This document shows positions 2,720-44,025 of a stretch of DNA of 64,000 nt, piece by piece. The position numbers and the translations under genes were made by a program. The DNA is from Lutibacter sp. (GTDB lineage: Bacteria; Bacteroidota; Bacteroidia; Flavobacteriales; Flavobacteriaceae). Below the pieces are notes generated by a model. That model worked only from the letters and a program-made list of their open reading frames with translations, ran no database searches and was not told the origin of the DNA. Each line of letters opens with the position of its first letter. Within the stretch, counting starts at the first letter, position 1. The stretch is taken from the NCBI RefSeq assembly GCF_041562875.1, contig NZ_JBFFOE010000005.1, positions 454-64,453 on the forward strand. Direction: 5' to 3'.

Positions 2720-3064
2720 ATGCCAAGATCAGTAAATTCAGTTGCTTCAAGAGCTAAGAGAAAAAAGATATTGAAGCTAGCAAAAGGTTACTTTGGACGT
2801 AGAAAAAACGTTTATACGGTAGCTAAAAATGCGGTTGAAAAAGGAATGGTTTATTCTTATAGAGACCGTAAAAACAAAAAAAGAACTTTCCGTGGTTTAT
2901 GGATTCAACGTATAAACGCTGGAGCCCGCCAATATGGATTGTCTTATTCACAGTTTATGGGTAAAGTAAAAGCTAATAACATTGAATTGAATCGTAAGGT
3001 TCTTGCAGATTTAGCGATGAACAACCCAGAGGCTTTTAAGGCTGTTGTAGATCAAGTAAAATAG
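2720..3064 (+). CDS. rplT: 50S ribosomal protein L20
   Basis: MPRSVN...AKGYFG...YRDRK...WIQRINA...[10 protein letters not shown]. Confidence 0.98.
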
Positions 3065-21918: not shown

Positions 21919-24105
21919 TTATCTTGTAAATAATAACTCTCTATATTTAGTTAATGGCCACAACTCATCATCAATCATCAATTCTAATTTATCACAATGT
22001 AATCTAATCTCATCAAAAAATGGTTTTACTTTAAAGCAATATGCATCAGCCATTGCTTCAATATTTTCTAATTTATTTGCTTTTTTACGCGCATCAATCA
22101 TTTTATCAATTTTGGAATGTATTCCTTCAATATGCTCAGAAATTCTTTTAATTAACAAAATTTGTTCTGCAGCATGTTTTTCAAAATCTGTTCCAAAAAT
22201 TTCTTTTAAGCCCGTAACATTTTTAATTAACAAGTTTTGGTAACGAACCGCTGTTGGAACCACATGATTACCAGCAATATCACCTAAAACACGAGATTCT
22301 ATTTGAATACGCTTTGTATACTCTTCCATTTCAACTTCATAGCGTACCACAGTTTCAACCTTACTCATCACATTCATTTCTTCAAATAAATCAATTGTTT
22401 TTTTAGAAATTTTAGCTTTTAATGCCTCGGGTGTTGTTTTATTATTACTTAAACCTCTTTTCTTTGCTTCTTTTTCCCATTCAATTCCGTAACCATTTCC
22501 TTCAAATAAAATTCTTTTAGATGCTTTTATGTATTCTCTTAGTACATTAAAAACGGCTTCATCTTTCTTTAAATCTTTCGTATCTATTAATTTATCAACT
22601 TCTATTTTAAAATCTTTTAACTGTTTCGCAACTATTGTGTTTAAAACTTTCATTGGTTTTGCACAGTTAGCTGTTGAGCCAACAGCTCTAAATTCAAATT
22701 TATTACCTGTAAACGCAAATGGAGATGTTCTGTTTCTATCTGTATTGTCTAATAACACATCAGGAATTTTACCCACAACGTTTAGTTTAAGGTCTGTTTT
22801 TTCTTCAGGAGAAAGTTTTCCATTTGTTACATTCTCTAGTTCATCTAAAACTTTGGTTAATTGAGCTCCAATAAAAACTGAAATAATTGCTGGTGGTGCT
22901 TCATTAGCTCCTAATCTATGATCATTACTTGCTGATGCTATAACAGCTCTCAACAATTCTTCATTTTCATTAACAGCTTTAATTGTGTTAATAAAGAATG
23001 TCAGAAATTGAAGATTGCTCATTGGAGTTTTTCCTGGTGATAACAAATTAATACCTGTGTCTGTTGATAATGACCAGTTATTATGTTTTCCTGAACCATT
23101 TACACTAGAAAAGGGTTTTTCATGCAGTAGCACTTTAAAATGATGACGTGCAGCAACTTTTCCCATTAAATCCATTAATAATGAATTATGATCTACTGCT
23201 AAATTTGCTTCTTCATAAATAGGTGCCAATTCAAACTGGTTTGGGGCTACCTCATTATGACGTGTTTTTACAGGAATTCCCAACAACATACACTCGGTTT
23301 CCAAATCGCGCATAAAATTCAATGCTCTACCAGGAATTGAACCAAAATAATGATCATCTAACTGTTGCCCTTTTGCAGGCGAATGCCCCAATAATGTTCT
23401 ACCTGTTAACATAATGTCAGGCCTACTTTCGGCTAAAGCTTTATCTATTAAAAAATATTCTTGTTCCCAACCAAGTGACGAAGTTACTTTTTTTACATTT
23501 TTATCGAAATATTTACAAACAGCAGTTGCTGAAGAATCCAAAGCTTGTAAAGCTCTTAACAAAGGTGTTTTATTATCTAAAGCTTCCCCTGTATATGCCA
23601 CAAATATGGTTGGTATACTTAAAGTAGTACCATACACAAATGCCGGTGATGTTGGATCCCAAGCAGTGTAGCCTCTTGCTTCAAACGTATTTCTTATTCC
23701 TCCATTTGGAAAACTTGAAGCATCTGGTTCTTGTTGCACCAATTCATTTCCTCCAAATCTTTCAATAGCCATACCTCCTCCAATAGTTTCAAAAAAAGCA
23801 TCATGTTTTTCTGCAGTTGCTCCAGTTAACGGTTGAAACCAATGTGTATAATGTGTCACTCCTTTAGACATAGCCCATTCTTTCATTGCTGAAGCTACTT
23901 GATTCGCAATTTTTCGATCAATTTTAGTACCATCATCAATAGCGCTCATTACACCTTTAAAGGCATCTTTAGTTAAATATTGGCGCATTGTATTTTCATT
24001 AAACACGTTTTGACCAAATAATTCTGATCTTTTTATACTTTCAATAACTTCAACAGGTTTTCTGTTAGAAGCATCGGTTAAAGCTTGAAATCTTAATCTT
24101 GCCAT
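21919..24105 (-). CDS. glnA: Glutamine synthetase type III
   Basis: 728 aa. Motifs THYTHWFQPLTG, EPDASSFPNGG, RGYTAWD, HNEVAPNQFE, NGSGKHNNWS, RLGANEAPP, DRNRTSPFAFTGNKFEFRA. Confidence 0.96.
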   Translation of the reverse strand: MARLRFQALTDASNRKPVEVIESIKRSELFGQNVFNENTMRQYLTKDAFKGVMSAIDDGTKIDRKIANQVASAMKEWAMSKGVTHYTHWFQPLTGATAEKHDAFFETIGGGMAIERFGGNELVQQEPDASSFPNGGIRNTFEARGYTAWDPTSPAFVYGTTLSIPTIFVAYTGEALDNKTPLLRALQALDSSATAVCKYFDKNVKKVTSSLGWEQEYFLIDKALAESRPDIMLTGRTLLGHSPAKGQQLDDHYFGSIPGRALNFMRDLETECMLLGIPVKTRHNEVAPNQFELAPIYEEANLAVDHNSLLMDLMGKVAARHHFKVLLHEKPFSSVNGSGKHNNWSLSTDTGINLLSPGKTPMSNLQFLTFFINTIKAVNENEELLRAVIASASNDHRLGANEAPPAIISVFIGAQLTKVLDELENVTNGKLSPEEKTDLKLNVVGKIPDVLLDNTDRNRTSPFAFTGNKFEFRAVGSTANCAKPMKVLNTIVAKQLKDFKIEVDKLIDTKDLKKDEAVFNVLREYIKASKRILFEGNGYGIEWEKEAKKRGLSNNKTTPEALKAKISKKTIDLFEEMNVMSKVETVVRYEVEMEEYTKRIQIESRVLGDIAGNHVVPTAVRYQNLLIKNVTGLKEIFGTDFEKHAAEQILLIKRISEHIEGIHSKIDKMIDARKKANKLENIEAMADAYCFKVKPFFDEIRLHCDKLELMIDDELWPLTKYRELLFTR

Positions 24106-24205
24106 ATTCTAAATTTTAAATTGTTCAACAAATATAAACTTTTTAGTAGAATAATTATTATCATTTTTCATTAAATAATTCATTTAAGTTGAATTATTCT
24201 ATATT

Positions 24206-24263
24206 AACCCCAAAAAAAATAGGGTATCCATAAAAATATTGATCTCAATAACATTTACACCCC
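24206..24263. promoter_or_regulatory. CCC-N11-GGG palindrome plus a half-site 52-53 bp away, between the divergent GS genes
   Basis: AACCC-CAAAAAAAATA-GGGTA at 24206-24226 and TTTACACCCC at 24254-24263. Same motif as the array upstream of glnK. Confidence 0.6.
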
Positions 24264-24335
24264 TTATATTTTTATTATATGATGAAAATATTTATTTTTG
24301 TCAAACATTTTGTATTTAATAAAACAAGAATTTAT

Positions 24336-25346
24336 ATGAGCAAATCAAAATTAGAATACATTTGGTTAGATGGGCATCAACCAACTCAAGAATTAAGAAG
24401 TAAAACAAAAGTTGAAAATGACTTTAGTGGAAAATTGGAAGATTGTAGCATTTGGTCTTTTGACGGTTCTTCTACTGAACAAGCTGAAGGTGGTTCTTCT
24501 GACTGTTTACTTAAACCTGTAGCTATTTATCCTGATCCGTCAAGACGCAATGGTTATTTAGTTATGTGTGAAGTATTAAATGCTGATAAAACCCCTCACG
24601 TATCAAATCATCGTGCAACAATTGATGATGATGATAACGATTTTTGGTTTGGTTTTGAGCAAGAATATTTCTTAATGGATTCTAAAACTGATTTACCTTT
24701 AGGTTTCCCACGTGGGGGATTCCCTGGGCCACAAGGGAAATACTATTGTTCAGTTGGAGGTAGATATACTTGGGGTAGAGATTTTGTTGAAGAACATGCA
24801 GACCTATGTATTGATGCTGGACTTAACTTTGAAGGAATTAACCAAGAGGTTGCTCCTGGACAATGGGAATTTCAATGTTTTGCACAAAGCGCTAAAACTG
24901 CCGGTGATGAAATTTGGGTAGCAAGATATTTATTAAATAGATTGTCAGAAAAATACAATTACTATATTGAATTACATCCAAAACCTGTAAAAGGAGACTG
25001 GAACGGTTCTGGTATGCATGCAAACTTTTCAAATACTACTTTAAGAACTTGTGGATCTAAAGAAATTTATAGTAAAATTTGCGAAGCATTTAGACCTTTA
25101 ACAGACGAGCATATTGGCGTTTATGGTGCATATAATGATGAAAGATTAACAGGATTGCATGAAACAGCTCACGTTTCAGATTTCTCTTATGGAGTATCTG
25201 ACAGAGGTGCCTCAATCCGTATTCCTATTATTACTGTTGAAAAAGGATGGAAAGGTTGGTTAGAAGACCGTCGTCCTGCTTCAAATGCTGACCCATATAA
25301 AGTTGCATCAAGAATTATTAGAACTGTTAATTCAGCTAAATTATAA
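24336..25346 (+). CDS. glnII: Glutamine synthetase type II
   Basis: KLEYIWLDG, WSFDGSST, FGFEQEY, GINQEVAPGQWEFQ, DWNGSGMHANFS, RLTGLHET, RGASIRIP, LEDRRPASNADPY. ATG 24336 follows a TATTTTTG box at 24293. Confidence 0.95.
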   Translation: MSKSKLEYIWLDGHQPTQELRSKTKVENDFSGKLEDCSIWSFDGSSTEQAEGGSSDCLLKPVAIYPDPSRRNGYLVMCEVLNADKTPHVSNHRATIDDDDNDFWFGFEQEYFLMDSKTDLPLGFPRGGFPGPQGKYYCSVGGRYTWGRDFVEEHADLCIDAGLNFEGINQEVAPGQWEFQCFAQSAKTAGDEIWVARYLLNRLSEKYNYYIELHPKPVKGDWNGSGMHANFSNTTLRTCGSKEIYSKICEAFRPLTDEHIGVYGAYNDERLTGLHETAHVSDFSYGVSDRGASIRIPIITVEKGWKGWLEDRRPASNADPYKVASRIIRTVNSAKL

Positions 25347-26593: not shown

Positions 26594-26959
26594 ATGGAAA
26601 AACTAACCAATAAAGAAGAAGAAATAATGCACGTTTTATGGACGCTTACTAAAGCTTTTGTAAAAGAAGTTGTTGCTGAATTACCAATGCCAAAACCACA
26701 TTACAACACAGTTTCAACAGTAATTAGAAAAATGGAGGATAAAGGGTATGTAAAACATGAAGCCTTTGGAAACACACACAGATATTATCCTGCTATATCA
26801 AAAGAAGAATATCGGAAAAATTATTTTTCAAGTGCTACACAAAATTATTTTGAAAATTCCTACAAAAATGTAGTCTCCTTTTTTGCGAAAGAAGAAAAAA
26901 TAAGCGCTGATGAATTACGTGAAATTATTAAACTTATTGAAAGTAAAAACAACCAATAA
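26594..26959 (+). CDS. BlaI/MecI/CopY family repressor
   Basis: LTNKEEEIMHVLW, HYNTVSTVIRKMEDKGYV, YYPAISKEEY, VVSFF. Confidence 0.93.
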   Translation: MEKLTNKEEEIMHVLWTLTKAFVKEVVAELPMPKPHYNTVSTVIRKMEDKGYVKHEAFGNTHRYYPAISKEEYRKNYFSSATQNYFENSYKNVVSFFAKEEKISADELREIIKLIESKNNQ

Positions 26960-26961
26960 TT

Positions 26962-28677
26962 ATGGACTATTTATTAAAGGCTAGCGGAATAGTTTTAATA
27001 CTTTTCTTATTTTATTATGTATTCTTAAAAAATGAGACTTTTTTTAAGTCAATTAGAAGTTATTTTATCATTGGATTATTAATAGTATTAACAATTCCCT
27101 TGATTGATATACCTATTTATGTTGAAACTATTAAATCTCAACTAAACTTGCTTAATTATGAAGAAATTGCTTCCACAAACATTACTGAACAAACTATTAA
27201 TTGGACTCAAATCTTTATTTTCATATATTTAATTGGTGTAGTTTTTTTTACTTTAAAATTTTTAATGCAATTAATTTCATTAGGGAATTTAATTTCAAAA
27301 CATCAATTAACAAAGCAAGGCAACTATTATTTTGTTGAAACTTCAAAAAACATTTCACCATTTTCATTTTTTAACATTATAATTTATAACAAATCACAAT
27401 TCAATATTGATGAACTTGAGCAAATTATAAATCATGAAAAAGCACACGTGCAACAGTGGCATTCTATTGACACACTTTTAGCTCACTTATTAGTAATTAC
27501 GCTATGGTTTAATCCGTTTGTTTGGTTATATAAAAAGGCAGTTCAACAAAATCTTGAATTTTTAGCTGATGCATATGCATTAGAACTAGCAGATAATCAC
27601 AAATTATATCAATTTACTTTATTAAAAACCTGTGGAGCAAATTACTGCACAGAAATAACAAACAATTTTTACAATTCATTAATTAAAAAACGCATTATTA
27701 TGTTACAAAAAAATCGTTCTACATCAAAAAATCAATGGAAATATGCTTTATTGCTACCTTTACTAACAGCATTTGTATTTACCTTCAACACTAAAGTAAT
27801 TGCTCAAGAAAAAAAAGTAATAGAAATTGAAGAAATCAACAATGAACTGATTGAATTAATTATTGACAAAAATACTTCTGATGAAACATTAAACGAAGAA
27901 AAAATAACTTTCAAACAAGAATTCGATATTACCATATCATTTAAAGGAATCAAACGAAATGCTAATAATGAAATAACTGCAATTAAAATTGATGCAAAAG
28001 GGAAAAATTTAAAATCAAAATTTGAAAACGCAAGTTCTGAACCAATAAAGGCAATTAAAATTTCATATAATTCTGATTACAACTCACTAAATATAAGTAA
28101 CCTGAGTAAGGTTTACAAAAATAGTTATACTTATACAATACATGAAGATAACGATAGTGCTAAAAAAGTAAAATTCAAACCAAATAAAGATGACAATTAT
28201 GCTTTTGTAACTTCAGATGGTAAAACAAAACTATGGAAAACAAAAGGAGATAGTAAAAATGTATGGGTTCAAGAACAAGGCAAAGAAAGCAACATTAAAG
28301 TTGAAGTAATTGAACTTAAAGAAGGAGAACGTGAAGTAAAAGTAATCCATGAAATAAATAAGGATGAAATAAATGAGGACATAGAAATAGAAATTAATGA
28401 AGACAGTGCATCTGAAAATGTTTTTGTGATTAAAACTGATCGTGACAAAAAAAATAAACAAAAAATTACCAAAAAAGAAAATTTAATTTTTGTAAGCTCC
28501 GGAAGTGAAGAGCCGATAACTTTTGTTGATGGTAAAGAAGTTTCAACTGAAGAAATGAAAAACATTGAACCAGATACAATAGAAAAAATAGAAGTATTAA
28601 AAGGGAACTCTGCAACAGATAAATATGGTGAAAAAGGAAAAAATGGGGTTATTTTAATTACTATCAAAAAGCAATAA
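26962..28677 (+). CDS. BlaR1-type M56 metallopeptidase with a C-terminal TonB-dependent-receptor plug-like domain
   Basis: SPFSFFN, HEKAH zinc motif, WFNPFVW, EFLAD, SLIKKRIIML. The C-terminus reads PITFVDGKE..IEKIEVLKG..YGEKGKNGVILIT. Confidence 0.9.
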   Translation: MDYLLKASGIVLILFLFYYVFLKNETFFKSIRSYFIIGLLIVLTIPLIDIPIYVETIKSQLNLLNYEEIASTNITEQTINWTQIFIFIYLIGVVFFTLKFLMQLISLGNLISKHQLTKQGNYYFVETSKNISPFSFFNIIIYNKSQFNIDELEQIINHEKAHVQQWHSIDTLLAHLLVITLWFNPFVWLYKKAVQQNLEFLADAYALELADNHKLYQFTLLKTCGANYCTEITNNFYNSLIKKRIIMLQKNRSTSKNQWKYALLLPLLTAFVFTFNTKVIAQEKKVIEIEEINNELIELIIDKNTSDETLNEEKITFKQEFDITISFKGIKRNANNEITAIKIDAKGKNLKSKFENASSEPIKAIKISYNSDYNSLNISNLSKVYKNSYTYTIHEDNDSAKKVKFKPNKDDNYAFVTSDGKTKLWKTKGDSKNVWVQEQGKESNIKVEVIELKEGEREVKVIHEINKDEINEDIEIEINEDSASENVFVIKTDRDKKNKQKITKKENLIFVSSGSEEPITFVDGKEVSTEEMKNIEPDTIEKIEVLKGNSATDKYGEKGKNGVILITIKKQ

Positions 28678-40955: not shown

Positions 40956-41636
40956 CTATAATGATATTAGAAATACTAAATATGCATCTTCAGTATCTGG
41001 ATTGAATATTGCCGATGCAGAAACACCTAAACTAAATGAATCTGTCATTTTAATATCTTTTGATGCGGAAACACCAAAATTAGTAACTGCAAAATCACCA
41101 TCAAGTGAATAAATTTCATTACCTGCCCCAACAAAAGCGCTTAATTCTGTTTCTCCTACTTTAAAAGGATATCTTATTTCTGTATAAATAGAATTTTGAT
41201 CATCATTGTAAATGTTAACACCAATCATAGCTGTTAAAGGAAATTTTTCAACCCCATCAAAAGTTAAAGTTGTTTCACCAATATGGTTTTTCATTTGAAA
41301 ATAACCGTCTGATACACCATCTACTGGAAATGCATAATCCGTAAATCCTAATGAAACTGGACCGAAAGAATAACTTGCATACAAATCGAATTCTTGCCCA
41401 ACCACTTGTCCGCCAGTTTCATAAGAAGCCCAAGCTCCTAATGTGAAATTTCCTGAGGTAAGCTCAACATAAGGTTGAACAGCAGGCGAATCAGAAAATT
41501 CTAAACCTCTCCATACATACCTACTTGCGAAATCTACTCCAATATCTAATGAAGCTTTCGTTTCTTCTTGTGCATTTATTGTACTTACTAATAAAATTGT
41601 TATCAATACCAATATTGCTTTTTTAATTGTTTTCAT
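40956..41636 (-). CDS. Putative porin (TorF / Gcw_chp-like beta-barrel) downstream of amtB
   Basis: Signal peptide, DFASRYVWRG, PAVQP, LGAWAS, EFDLYASY, amphipathic strands. Confidence 0.75.
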   Translation of the reverse strand: MKTIKKAILVLITILLVSTINAQEETKASLDIGVDFASRYVWRGLEFSDSPAVQPYVELTSGNFTLGAWASYETGGQVVGQEFDLYASYSFGPVSLGFTDYAFPVDGVSDGYFQMKNHIGETTLTFDGVEKFPLTAMIGVNIYNDDQNSIYTEIRYPFKVGETELSAFVGAGNEIYSLDGDFAVTNFGVSASKDIKMTDSFSLGVSASAIFNPDTEDAYLVFLISL

Positions 41637-41741: not shown

Positions 41742-42983
41742 TTAATGCTCGTTTAAAGCAAAATCTGGATAAGCATCCATTCCGTGTTCATGAATGTCTA
41801 AGCCTTCTTGTTCTTCCTCTACAGAAACTCTAATACCCACTGTAACTTTTAAAGTTTTAATAATTACATAAGAAGTAGTTAAACAGAAAGCTCCTATTGA
41901 AACAACCCCAATTGCTTGGTAACCTAATTGTGTCCAACCTGCCAATTCGCCAAAAATTCCAACAGCTAAAGTTCCCCAAATACCACAAATTAAATGTACA
42001 GCAATTGCACCAACTGGGTCATCTAACTTTAATTTATCCACTAACGCTACACCCGTAACAATTAATGCACCTGCAATAAATCCAATTAAAATAGAATCTG
42101 TTACGCTCATTATATCAGCACCGGCAGTAATCCCAACTAAACCACCAAGAATTCCATTTAAAAACATAGACAAATCATATTGTTTGTATTTAAATAAAGA
42201 CACTAAAAAAGCAGACAATCCTCCAGAAGCAGCAGCTAAACAAGTGGTAACTAAAACCAATGATGTTTTTGCCGGATCAGCAGAAAGTACAGATCCGCCA
42301 TTAAAACCAAACCAACCTAACCACAAAATAAATACACCCGCTGTGGCAAATGGCATATTATGACCAGGTATTACACCTATTGAACCATCTTTTTTGAATT
42401 TTCCAATTCTTGCTCCCAATAACCAAACTGCAATCAATGCTGCCCATCCACCAACTGAATGCACTAAAGTTGATCCTGCAAAATCATAAAAACCAAGTTC
42501 ATCTAACCAACCTGTTCCCCATTTCCATGAACCTGTAATTGGATAAACTATACCAACATAAATAATTGTAAAAATCATAAATGACCCTAGTTTTATTCTT
42601 TCAGCAACAGCTCCAGAAACTATCGTTGCTGCCGTAGCGGCAAACATTCCTTGAAATAAAAAGTCTGTCCAGTAGGTATAACCTCCATTAGCGTATGCAG
42701 CTGTCAATCCATTTTCAGGAACTGTAAGTCCAAATAAATCAATAAAATAATCAGGTATAATTCCTGCAATAAACGTCCCCGGATACATTAGATTAAATCC
42801 TACCAATGCATATAATACCATTCCAATTGAAATAATAAATACGTTTTTAAATAAAATATTTATTGTATTTTTTTGTCTTGTTAATCCTATTTCTAACAAT
42901 GAGAATCCTAAATGCATTAAAAAAACTAATGCCGTACAAATCATCATCCATACATTGTTTACTGTAAATAATGTGCTTTCCAT
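41742..42983 (-). CDS. amtB: Ammonium transporter
   Basis: FQGMFAATAATIVSGAVAER, DFAGSTLVH, GWFGFNGGS, NGILGGLVGITAG, DDPVGAIAVH. The twin His residues are present. Confidence 0.97.
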   Translation of the reverse strand: MESTLFTVNNVWMMICTALVFLMHLGFSLLEIGLTRQKNTINILFKNVFIISIGMVLYALVGFNLMYPGTFIAGIIPDYFIDLFGLTVPENGLTAAYANGGYTYWTDFLFQGMFAATAATIVSGAVAERIKLGSFMIFTIIYVGIVYPITGSWKWGTGWLDELGFYDFAGSTLVHSVGGWAALIAVWLLGARIGKFKKDGSIGVIPGHNMPFATAGVFILWLGWFGFNGGSVLSADPAKTSLVLVTTCLAAASGGLSAFLVSLFKYKQYDLSMFLNGILGGLVGITAGADIMSVTDSILIGFIAGALIVTGVALVDKLKLDDPVGAIAVHLICGIWGTLAVGIFGELAGWTQLGYQAIGVVSIGAFCLTTSYVIIKTLKVTVGIRVSVEEEQEGLDIHEHGMDAYPDFALNEH

Positions 42984-43010: not shown

Positions 43011-43349
43011 TTATTTTAATGAATCAATCCCTTTTTCTCCTGTTCTAATTCTATAAGATTCTGTGATATCAGAAACAAATATTTTTCCATCTCCTACAAT
43101 TCCTGTGTAGGCTGTTTTTATGATAGCATCAACAGTTATATCTAAAAATGGATCAGAAACTATGATTGACAAAAATCTGCGCTGAATGTCTGAAGTACTA
43201 TAGCTAACACCCCTATAAACATGTCCTTGTTTTTCATTTCCAACTCCAGTTACATCCCAGTAACTAAAAAAATTGACTTCAATTTGATGTAAAGCTTCTT
43301 TTACTTCATCAAATTTTGATTTTCGAATAATCGCTTCGATTTTCTTCAT
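43011..43349 (-). CDS. glnK: PII nitrogen regulatory protein (GlnK-like)
   Basis: 112 aa from ATG 43349: MKKIEAIIR..YRG..TGIVGDGKIFVS..RIRTGEKG. It lies directly upstream of amtB. Confidence 0.92.
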   Translation of the reverse strand: MKKIEAIIRKSKFDEVKEALHQIEVNFFSYWDVTGVGNEKQGHVYRGVSYSTSDIQRRFLSIIVSDPFLDITVDAIIKTAYTGIVGDGKIFVSDITESYRIRTGEKGIDSLK

Positions 43350-43379
43350 AATAAAATGATTTTTTAATTGATTTCGGGT

Positions 43380-43387
43380 CAAAAATA
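43380..43387 (-). promoter_or_regulatory. -7 box of the glnK-amtB operon
   Basis: TATTTTTG on the minus strand. A TTTG -33 candidate at 43408-43411 lies inside the first palindrome. Confidence 0.6.
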
Positions 43388-43401
43388 TAATTATATTTTA
43401 T

Positions 43402-43581
43402 TACCCCCAAATTTTTTATGGGTAGTGTGGTTATTTTTATTATTTTATTTACTTATACCCTATTTTTTTATGGGTAATTTAAATATTATTATTATTTATT
43501 AAGAATTATACCCTAATTTTTTATGGGCATATAATTTGAAAATAAGAATATATGATTATACACCCCAAATTTTAGAGGGTA
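43402..43581. repeat. Array of four CCC-N11-GGG palindromes with a 52-53-bp period
   Basis: GGG half-sites start at 43420, 43472, 43525 and 43577. Spacers are aaattttttat, tatttttttat, taattttttat and caaattttaga. Confidence 0.9.
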
Positions 43582-43653
43582 CATTCATAAATAAAATTAT
43601 TATTAATTGAAAAGGATGTAAATATTAACTTATTGAATTGTAGAAATTACTAA

Positions 43654-44025
43654 TTAAAGAAGTTTTGAAATATATAAGCCTAAGAAAACGGCAGAGAAAC
43701 CTAAAATTAAAGACAATAAAGTATAAGGTAAAAAACTAAAATAATCACCATTTTTAATCAATAAATGGTTTTCATAAGCAAACGCTGAAAAAGTAGTAAA
43801 ACCACCACAAAAACCAGTGGCTAATAATAAGGACTGACTTTGAGACATGTTTCCTGTCTTACCCAAATAACCTAAAATTATACCAATTAATAAACTTCCA
43901 AGCACATTAGATAACATAGTTCCGTAAGGAATGGCATTTTCAATATTATTAAACCATTTTCCAAGAAAATACCTTGCAACACTCCCAAAACCACCACCAA
44001 CAAATACTAATAAAGCATGTTTCAT
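43654..44025 (-). CDS. crcB: Fluoride channel CrcB/FluC
   Basis: GGGFGSVARY, PYGT..NVLGS, GFCGGFTTFS. Confidence 0.95.
   Translation of the reverse strand: MKHALLVFVGGGFGSVARYFLGKWFNNIENAIPYGTMLSNVLGSLLIGIILGYLGKTGNMSQSQSLLLATGFCGGFTTFSAFAYENHLLIKNGDYFSFLPYTLLSLILGFSAVFLGLYISKLL

Follow-up and report, generated by a model that had tools for sequence, protein, structure and literature searches.

Among the Bacteroidia are the bacteria that dominate polysaccharide degradation in the ocean (Flavobacteriaceae) and in the gut and rumen (Bacteroides and Prevotella). How nitrogen status is perceived in these bacteria, and how amtB, glnK, GSIII, and GOGAT are induced, appears, to our knowledge, unexplained. 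A 64,000-nucleotide stretch of a Lutibacter sp. genome (hereafter the window) raises this question at a single locus. The spacer upstream of glnK-amtB holds four similar palindromes at a nearly constant distance, which the original prediction had read as a candidate for a previously undescribed nitrogen operator of Bacteroidota. We asked what these palindromes are, where else they occur, and what kind of regulator would read them. The operator reading is supported by conservation of the motif, by its enrichment at nitrogen genes, and by its conserved period.

The palindrome array and the glnK promoter

The array is located in the intergenic spacer 43351-43653, with crcB (43654-44025, minus strand) on its far flank and glnK on the other side. 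Four CCC-N11-GGG units lie at 43406-43422, 43458-43474, 43511-43527, and 43563-43579, each with an 11-nt A/T core. The promoter-proximal palindrome, site 1, spans 43403-43424 (ACCCCCAAATTTTTTATGGGTA, center 43414) and scores 20.7 with the position weight matrix (PWM) described below. It is followed by site 2 at 43456-43476 (TACCCTATTTTTTTATGGGTA, center 43466, PWM 18.9), site 3 at 43509-43529 (TACCCTAATTTTTTATGGGCA, center 43519, PWM 17.6), and site 4 at 43561-43581 (CACCCCAAATTTTAGAGGGTA, center 43571), whose score of 24.0 is the best in the genome. Direct reading and counts therefore bear out the claim of four A/T-core palindromes spaced 52, 53, and 52 bp apart. The stricter form first given for them, (T/C)ACCC-N11-GGG(T/C)A, stands in part. 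CCC-N11-GGG is present in all four, but site 1 reads ACCCCC...GGGTA and site 3 ends in GGGCA.

The 64-kb window contains 6 CCC-N11-GGG strings, against 1.28 expected from dinucleotide shuffles, and 4 of the 6 fall in one 180-bp stretch. The whole genome (2.99 Mb, 29.7% GC) contains 44 such strings, half of which (22/44) have an A/T-rich core. Four strings per 180 bp, set against six per window and 44 per genome, is far beyond chance. In a search of sequencing runs, the array sequence was present in metagenomic DNA runs only.

The first gene of the putatively regulated operon is glnK, encoding PII (43011-43349, minus strand; PF00543, 3.9e-21). Its start ATG at 43349 gives MKKIE, matching the orthologues. 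The ammonium transporter gene amtB (41742-42983, minus strand; PF00909, 1.7e-112) comes next. A gene for a small porin-like outer-membrane protein (40956-41636, minus strand; no Pfam match) lies 3' of amtB, a position kept in six loci.

TAnnTTTG is the -7 consensus of Bacteroidetes sigma-A promoters. A -7 box of this type was read directly at 43380-43387 on the minus strand (TATTTTTG), and ten orthologous promoters have one at an equal offset. Sites 1 to 4 lie 27, 79, 132, and 184 nt from this box. A -33-like TTTG (43408-43411, minus strand) is found 20 nt upstream of it, inside the right arm of site 1, so the first palindrome does overlap the -33 element of the glnK promoter as originally claimed. 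With the start of the -7 box placed near -11 or -12, the center of site 1 falls at about -38 and the site covers the -33 element. The -33 TTTG is poorly conserved, and orthologues often have TTTA or ATAG in its place.

Distribution of the motif in the genome and across Bacteroidia

The motif was also expected to recur, with its period, between the two glutamine synthetase genes of the window, and it does. A full site at 24206-24226 (AACCCCAAAAAAAATAGGGTA, center 24216, PWM 22.0), with its CCC-N11-GGG at 24208-24224, lies between the divergent GSIII gene (21919-24105, minus strand) and GSII gene (24338-25346, plus strand). This site is 80 nt from the GSIII -7 box (24129-24136, minus strand, TATATTTG) and 77 nt from the GSII -7 box (24293-24300, plus strand, TATTTTTG). 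The proximal position of the GSII promoter carries a half-site, ACACCCC (24257-24263), which keeps its A/T core (24257-24281 in all, plus strand) and has lost the right arm. The half-site lies 24 nt from the -7 box and 52-53 bp from the full site. It scores -4.4, where the 99th percentile of background is -6.6. The GSIII promoter of the window has no site at the proximal position and carries the distal site at 80 nt only.

A symmetric PWM of 25 columns was built from 59 sites. It has CCC at -8 to -6 and GGG at +6 to +8, with half-site centers 14 bp apart; these six columns are fixed by construction, since the sites were gathered by matching CCC-N11-GGG. Position -9 is A or C, and the seven central positions are more than 95% A/T, with A-tracts favored. 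A scan of the 2.99-Mb genome gave 26 distinct matches with a score of at least 12, and the top intergenic ones were the four glnK sites and the GS site. Apart from these, one intergenic match exceeded 17, C83:6978 (PWM 19.8), upstream of gltX (glutamyl-tRNA synthetase). It was not counted because it abuts a GGGG...CCCC hairpin (GGGGATATTTCCCC, C83:6950-7000) and lies 410 bp from gltX. The regulon predicted for this genome is small, comprising glnK-amtB-porin and the two GS genes.

A degenerate form of the pattern matched 254 places in 41 genomes of Flavobacteriaceae, compared with 117 for the reversed control. From these, 60 matched places in 15 genomes were fetched. Nitrogen-assimilation genes adjoin 16 of the 31 intergenic sites in this sample, the enrichment that the original prediction had called for. 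The neighbors are porin-glnK-amtB (often divergent from gltB), amtB alone, GSIII, GSII, and alanine dehydrogenase (ald). The rest of the intergenic matches are mostly A-run/T-run hairpins resembling terminators. A second genus has distant Amt paralogues only (31-33% identity), and a single site lies upstream of those genes too. The expectation of a match at gltBD was realized in other genomes of the family, where sites adjoin gltB, but not at gltB of the window genome, which has no site.

Palindromes in such a spacer could also be leader RNA hairpins, remnants of the crcB terminator, or copies of a dispersed repeat. The region does fold better than its shuffles (z = -2.87), a trivial score given the palindromes themselves, and some look-alike strings elsewhere are terminator-like (AAAACCCC...GGGGTTTT). 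A protein operator is favored over an RNA or repeat element because the arms are invariant without compensatory change, the cores are not self-complementary and leave stems of 3-4 bp only, half-sites are retained in register, the position of the sites is upstream of the promoter with its -7 box, and no Rfam 15 covariance model matched 43250-43750 on either strand at E <= 1. Moreover, the genome holds only about six good sites, all at nitrogen genes. A dispersed or REP-like element was rejected on the 26 distinct matches of at least 12 in 2.99 Mb, the best of which are at glnK and GS. The RNA or repeat explanation is thus largely refuted, and we give it very little credence.

Conservation was followed through relatives of AmtB, with a single genome sampled for each species. 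In many genera the motif is present at the orthologous promoter, as the operator reading had anticipated. The closest relative, a Lutibacter locus with 86% AmtB identity (L001), has an identical four-site layout. One or, mostly, two palindromes of the form ACCCC-(A/T)9-11-GGGGT are found upstream of glnK in Salegentibacter, Robiginitalea, Sediminicola, Psychroflexus, Christiangramia, Formosa, a Schleiferiaceae genome, and several other Flavobacteriaceae. In Winogradskyella, Dokdonia, Seonamhaeicola, and Polaribacter, a larger porin gene heads the operon and the sites lie upstream of the porin. The ancestral layout is two sites, and the four-site array is an expansion of the Lutibacter lineage, common to the window genome and L001. 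The sites are absent from the amtB loci of other phyla recovered in the AmtB-relative search.

Gene order around the transporter varies by genus. Here, the porin-like gene 3' of amtB encodes 226 aa. In many other genera, a porin gene of 340-355 aa before glnK carries the candidate operator (e.g., L086 1851-2891).

Beyond Flavobacteriaceae, the motif precedes GSIII in at least eight families of Bacteroidia, and in three of the families outside Flavobacteriaceae the sites upstream of GSIII are tandem or near-tandem. A sample of 30 further families, each represented by one genome, was then considered. Six of these have a site scoring at least 14 within 400 bp upstream of GSIII, and those six are the sole matches at this score in the 153 kb fetched from the 30 families. 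GSIII promoters in the other 24 of the 30 families are without a full site, and the system therefore does not extend to the whole class. When the tandem pattern was searched class-wide without an A/T core, the result was swamped by GC-rich chance matches, and the search was rerun with the core. The strict two-site pattern with A/T cores occurs in 4 of 401 genomes of the class, always at nitrogen genes, and in none of the reversed control. The putative system is general in Flavobacteriaceae and, elsewhere in the class, present yet non-universal.

Many GSIII promoters outside Flavobacteriaceae keep the inner arms only, and their distances from the -7 box are about 51-55 nt for the G-run and 12-16 nt for the C-run. 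The gap from inner G-run to C-run is 32-36 nt, which corresponds to the same 52-53 bp period. The functional unit might be a larger nucleoprotein complex, formed by an oligomer or by two different proteins. It would recognize CCC and GGG arms in alternation, at distances of 14 and 39 bp, and would bend or wrap 50-200 bp of A/T-rich promoter DNA. Such a unit would fit the arms most often kept outside Flavobacteriaceae, GGGGG(T)-32-36 nt-(A)CCCCC, and the extent of the four-site array, which covers 180 bp on one helix face. It would also fit the linkers, which often carry an A-tract/T-tract palindrome of their own (AAAAAGTATACTTTTT in L228 is an example) and which in Flavobacteriaceae commonly share CATAAAAAT near the center. 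However, isolated 17-21-bp palindromes occur at several nitrogen promoters, so the inverted repeat can stand alone, and no oligomeric candidate protein is known. We consider a larger unit of this kind rather improbable.

The linkers have further features. A central (C/G)ATAAAAAT is found in glnK or porin promoters of nine loci (L005, L007, L011, L017, L023, L072, L013, L020, and L025) and is absent from the window's own linkers. The A-tract/T-tract palindrome of the 32-36-nt linker was seen in GSIII promoters of the other families (L228, L233, L240, and L230), where it lies about 25-45 nt upstream of the -7 box. It could be the site of a second protein or part of one large footprint.

Spacing, helical register, and direction of regulation

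Over all loci, the distance between neighboring sites is 52 bp in 5 cases, 53 bp in 10, 54 bp in 6, and 106 bp in 1, and the usual layout in Flavobacteriaceae is two sites 52-54 bp apart. The period of about five helical turns claimed for the array is therefore conserved across loci. The sites also keep a fixed relation to the promoter. At glnK, porin, and amtB promoters, the offsets from site center to -7 box are 25-28, 78-82, 132, and 184 nt, and in ten orthologous glnK promoters the offset of the site corresponding to site 1 is 25-28 nt. Offsets at GSIII promoters are more varied, at 18, 24, 29, 37, 58-62, 69, 70, 78, 80, 108, 111, and 153 nt. Together, the offsets are phased at 10.5 bp with a Rayleigh R of 0.70 (n = 54), or 0.57 for the 31 distinct values of gene type and offset. 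The p-values are optimistic because orthologous promoters share offsets and are non-independent. Taken alone, the GSIII offsets have the same phase. No phasing was found at 7, 8, 9.5, or 12 bp.

Promoters whose only full site is distal mostly keep a proximal half-site, usually the upstream arm ACCCC with the A/T core. The score of this half-site exceeds the 95th percentile of background in 6 of 8 promoters and the 99th percentile in 4 of 8. The GSIII promoter of the window is the exception.

We consider it fairly probable that the array is an operator array for one nitrogen-responsive dimeric factor of Bacteroidia, probably an activator of the class II/III CRP/NtcA-like type. Each dimer would read the CCC and GGG triplets across the A/T-tract core, as expected of a two-fold symmetric protein that touches major grooves 14 bp apart over a narrow A-tract minor groove. 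With sites five helical turns apart (52-54 bp), the dimers would share one helix face relative to the -7 box. The proximal dimer, at about -38, would replace or overlap the weak -33 element, and the upstream dimers would sit at about -90, -143, and -195. Under nitrogen limitation, the factor is predicted to activate transcription of glnK-amtB-porin, GSII, and GSIII by contacting RNA polymerase from phased positions, as in class II/III CRP or NtcA promoters. Strong distal sites may help to load weak proximal sites or half-sites, and such cooperative loading is indirectly supported by the half-sites kept in register. Control of the factor by PII or GS, as first suggested, and wrapping of the DNA by an oligomer are conjecture. 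That a protein binds here, that it does so cooperatively, and which way and by what signal it regulates are all things that we infer from these patterns.

The same sites and the same factor could instead serve repression in nitrogen excess, in parallel with GlnR of Bacillus, AmtR of Corynebacterium, and NrpR of methanogens. The proximal dimer would then block the -33 element, and the upstream dimers would raise its occupancy by cooperativity or looping. This explanation stays a serious rival because proximal positions overlap the core promoter. Site 1 overlaps the -33-like TTTG, the C-run of other families lies within the core promoter at 12-16 nt from the -7 box, and weak proximal half-sites combined with strong distal sites suit cooperative repression. 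The GSIII promoter of the window is harder to reconcile with a repressor. Its single site lies 80 nt upstream of the -7 box with none at the proximal position, and occlusion cannot explain this distal-only layout. Likewise, GSIII sites between about 18 and 153 nt keep the 10.5-bp promoter register, which a simple occluder does not need, and the -33 element is weak in orthologues. Activation is preferred for three reasons: sites as far as about 150-180 nt away keep in register with the promoter, the -33 elements are weak, and one promoter has a distal site only. Repression is accordingly judged unlikely.

Activation by a phased factor can be put in a more general form, which we hold more tentatively and regard as plausible. 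Bacteroidia may control ammonium uptake and GS/GOGAT via a new factor that reads ACCCC-N9-11-GGGGT. A helically phased chain of two to four of its dimers, 52-53 bp apart, would stand in place of the -33 element and activate the sigma-A polymerase. In Prevotella ruminicola 23, amtB, glnK, glnN, gltBD, and asnB co-vary up to 69-fold with ammonium supply, and according to that paper the regulation of those genes had yet to be characterized (PMC5552732). This co-variation fits a dedicated nitrogen regulon in the class.

A sharply defined, conserved candidate operator at known positions makes nitrogen control in Bacteroidia directly testable at the bench. A motif-based search for the nitrogen regulator is now possible, and the motif allows nitrogen regulons to be predicted in metagenome-assembled genomes. 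The array also offers a natural multi-site promoter architecture for Bacteroidetes, for whose -33/-7 promoters we know of few characterized activators.

Candidate regulators and comparison with known operators

The gene for the regulator itself was expected to carry a match, and this expectation failed among the genomes examined. No transcription-factor gene recurred beside a site in the 15 genomes of the family and 5 further genomes. Clustering of 338 neighbor proteins from 54 loci gave no recurrent regulator except one BlaI/BlaR pair, found close to GS in three genera, and no regulator was found among the other genes of the window. The pair consists of a BlaI-type repressor (121 aa, PF03965) and a BlaR/M56 sensor-protease with a TonB-plug-like end, encoded a few kilobases from the GS genes. 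It lies behind a Na/Ca exchanger gene in each case (26594-28677 in the window, 3252-5559 in L111, and 4134-6018 in L132). We take its presence near the GS genes as conserved synteny.

Seven Crp/Fnr paralogues are encoded in the window genome (G000). None of the seven is in a nitrogen-gene context, and none could be linked to the motif. A 110-aa MerR-like protein (C126:3862-4194), encoded beside alaS and an M23 peptidase gene, is single-copy in 16 of 16 genomes tested from four families, with a nearly invariant helix-turn-helix. It is a generic MerR protein with a coiled-coil tail and the only small MerR-type protein of the window genome. It scores 22.8 bits against the TnrA model, for which the cutoff is 140; GlnR/TnrA match it at an E of about 1e-4, and CueR/MerR are equally close. 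Nothing was found that ties this protein to nitrogen specifically, and we think it improbable as the factor. The factor may come from a protein family so far without a known role in nitrogen control, such as that of this MerR-like protein or one that lacks a recognized DNA-binding domain.

An Rrf2/IscR-like regulator was suggested by the CC-N13-GG geometry of the motif. The type-2 box of IscR is AxxxCCxxAxxxxxxxTAxGGxxxT (PMC4169559). Its geometry is identical to that found here, since CC-N13-GG equals CCC-N11-GGG, and its center is likewise A/T-rich. However, an Rrf2 protein is not present wherever the motif is, and this candidate was rejected on co-occurrence. Five motif-bearing genomes lack the Rrf2 orthologue of the window genome, and two of these have no member of the family at all, which excludes Rrf2. 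In these two (G002 and G242, 99% complete), a PF02082 search returned no Rrf2 protein, though the motif lies upstream of GSIII in both.

Two observations touch on this family. In one genome (G036, locus L084, near position 3010), an iscA/sufA-sufB operon has a palindrome resembling the motif, ATACCCTAAAAAATACGGGGTGT, 119 bp upstream. This may be a true IscR-type box of equal geometry, which would yield false positives in searches for the nitrogen motif. Outside the window, at C3:55469-57769, a Cys-rich Rrf2 regulator (138 aa) is encoded 3' of two amidinotransferase-fold genes, with which it is apparently co-transcribed. These genes resemble citrulline/dimethylarginine hydrolases, and citrate synthase adjoins. 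The locus probably forms a local regulon for the catabolism of arginine or citrulline, and its regulator is excluded as the motif binder.

Searches of the literature outside subscription journals returned no description of the motif or of a nitrogen regulator of Bacteroidia, in line with the earlier remark that no characterized global nitrogen regulator is known in Flavobacteria. The motif had further been held to be unlike the sites of NtrC, GlnR/TnrA, NtcA, and NrpR, and its consensus does differ from each. For NtrC and sigma-54, direct reading of the 300-bp region found neither TGCACC-N5-GGTGCA sites nor a -24/-12 element (GG-N10-GC), and in place of the latter stands the conserved TAnnTTTG -7 box. 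The NrpR sequence GGAA-N6-TTCC is absent from the array region.

Another resemblance is in the arms. CsoR and RicR operators, of the form TACCC-N5-GGGTA, belong to copper regulons and are read by an all-helical tetramer. The TACCC/GGGTA arms are identical, but the spacer is 5 nt there and 11 nt here. GlnR/TnrA of Firmicutes (TGTNA-N7-TNACA) resemble the present case in outline, with TGT-N11-ACA against CCC-N11-GGG and an A/T-rich core. Their boxes are bound by a small MerR-type protein whose tail interacts with GS. Their targets include amtB-glnK and GS, and some of their promoters have two neighboring sites. The bases read differ, however, which places the motif outside the GlnR/TnrA class.

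The closest likeness in promoter layout is to NtcA and class II/III CRP/FNR systems. CRP and NtcA sites are positioned at -41.5 and -93.5. Here too, by analogy, a proposed dimer would sit on a palindrome overlapping the upstream promoter element or standing in for it. Additional sites lie on the same face of the helix about 52 bp upstream, and the targets (amt, glnB/K, and GS genes) are those of NtcA. The sequences read are different, being GTA-N8-TAC for NtcA and TGTGA-N6-TCACA for CRP as opposed to CCC-N11-GGG, with triplets at +/-6 to 8. Their half-site centers are about 9-11 bp apart rather than 14 bp, which sets the motif outside the NtcA and CRP consensus, and the promoter here is of the Bacteroidetes -33/-7 type. 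The sequence definitions of NtcA, CRP, GlnR/TnrA, NtrC, and NrpR and the co-occurrence of Rrf2 all failed, and the motif is thereby set apart from known sites. What appears to be new is the operator of a putative global nitrogen regulon, a class of thing already known elsewhere.
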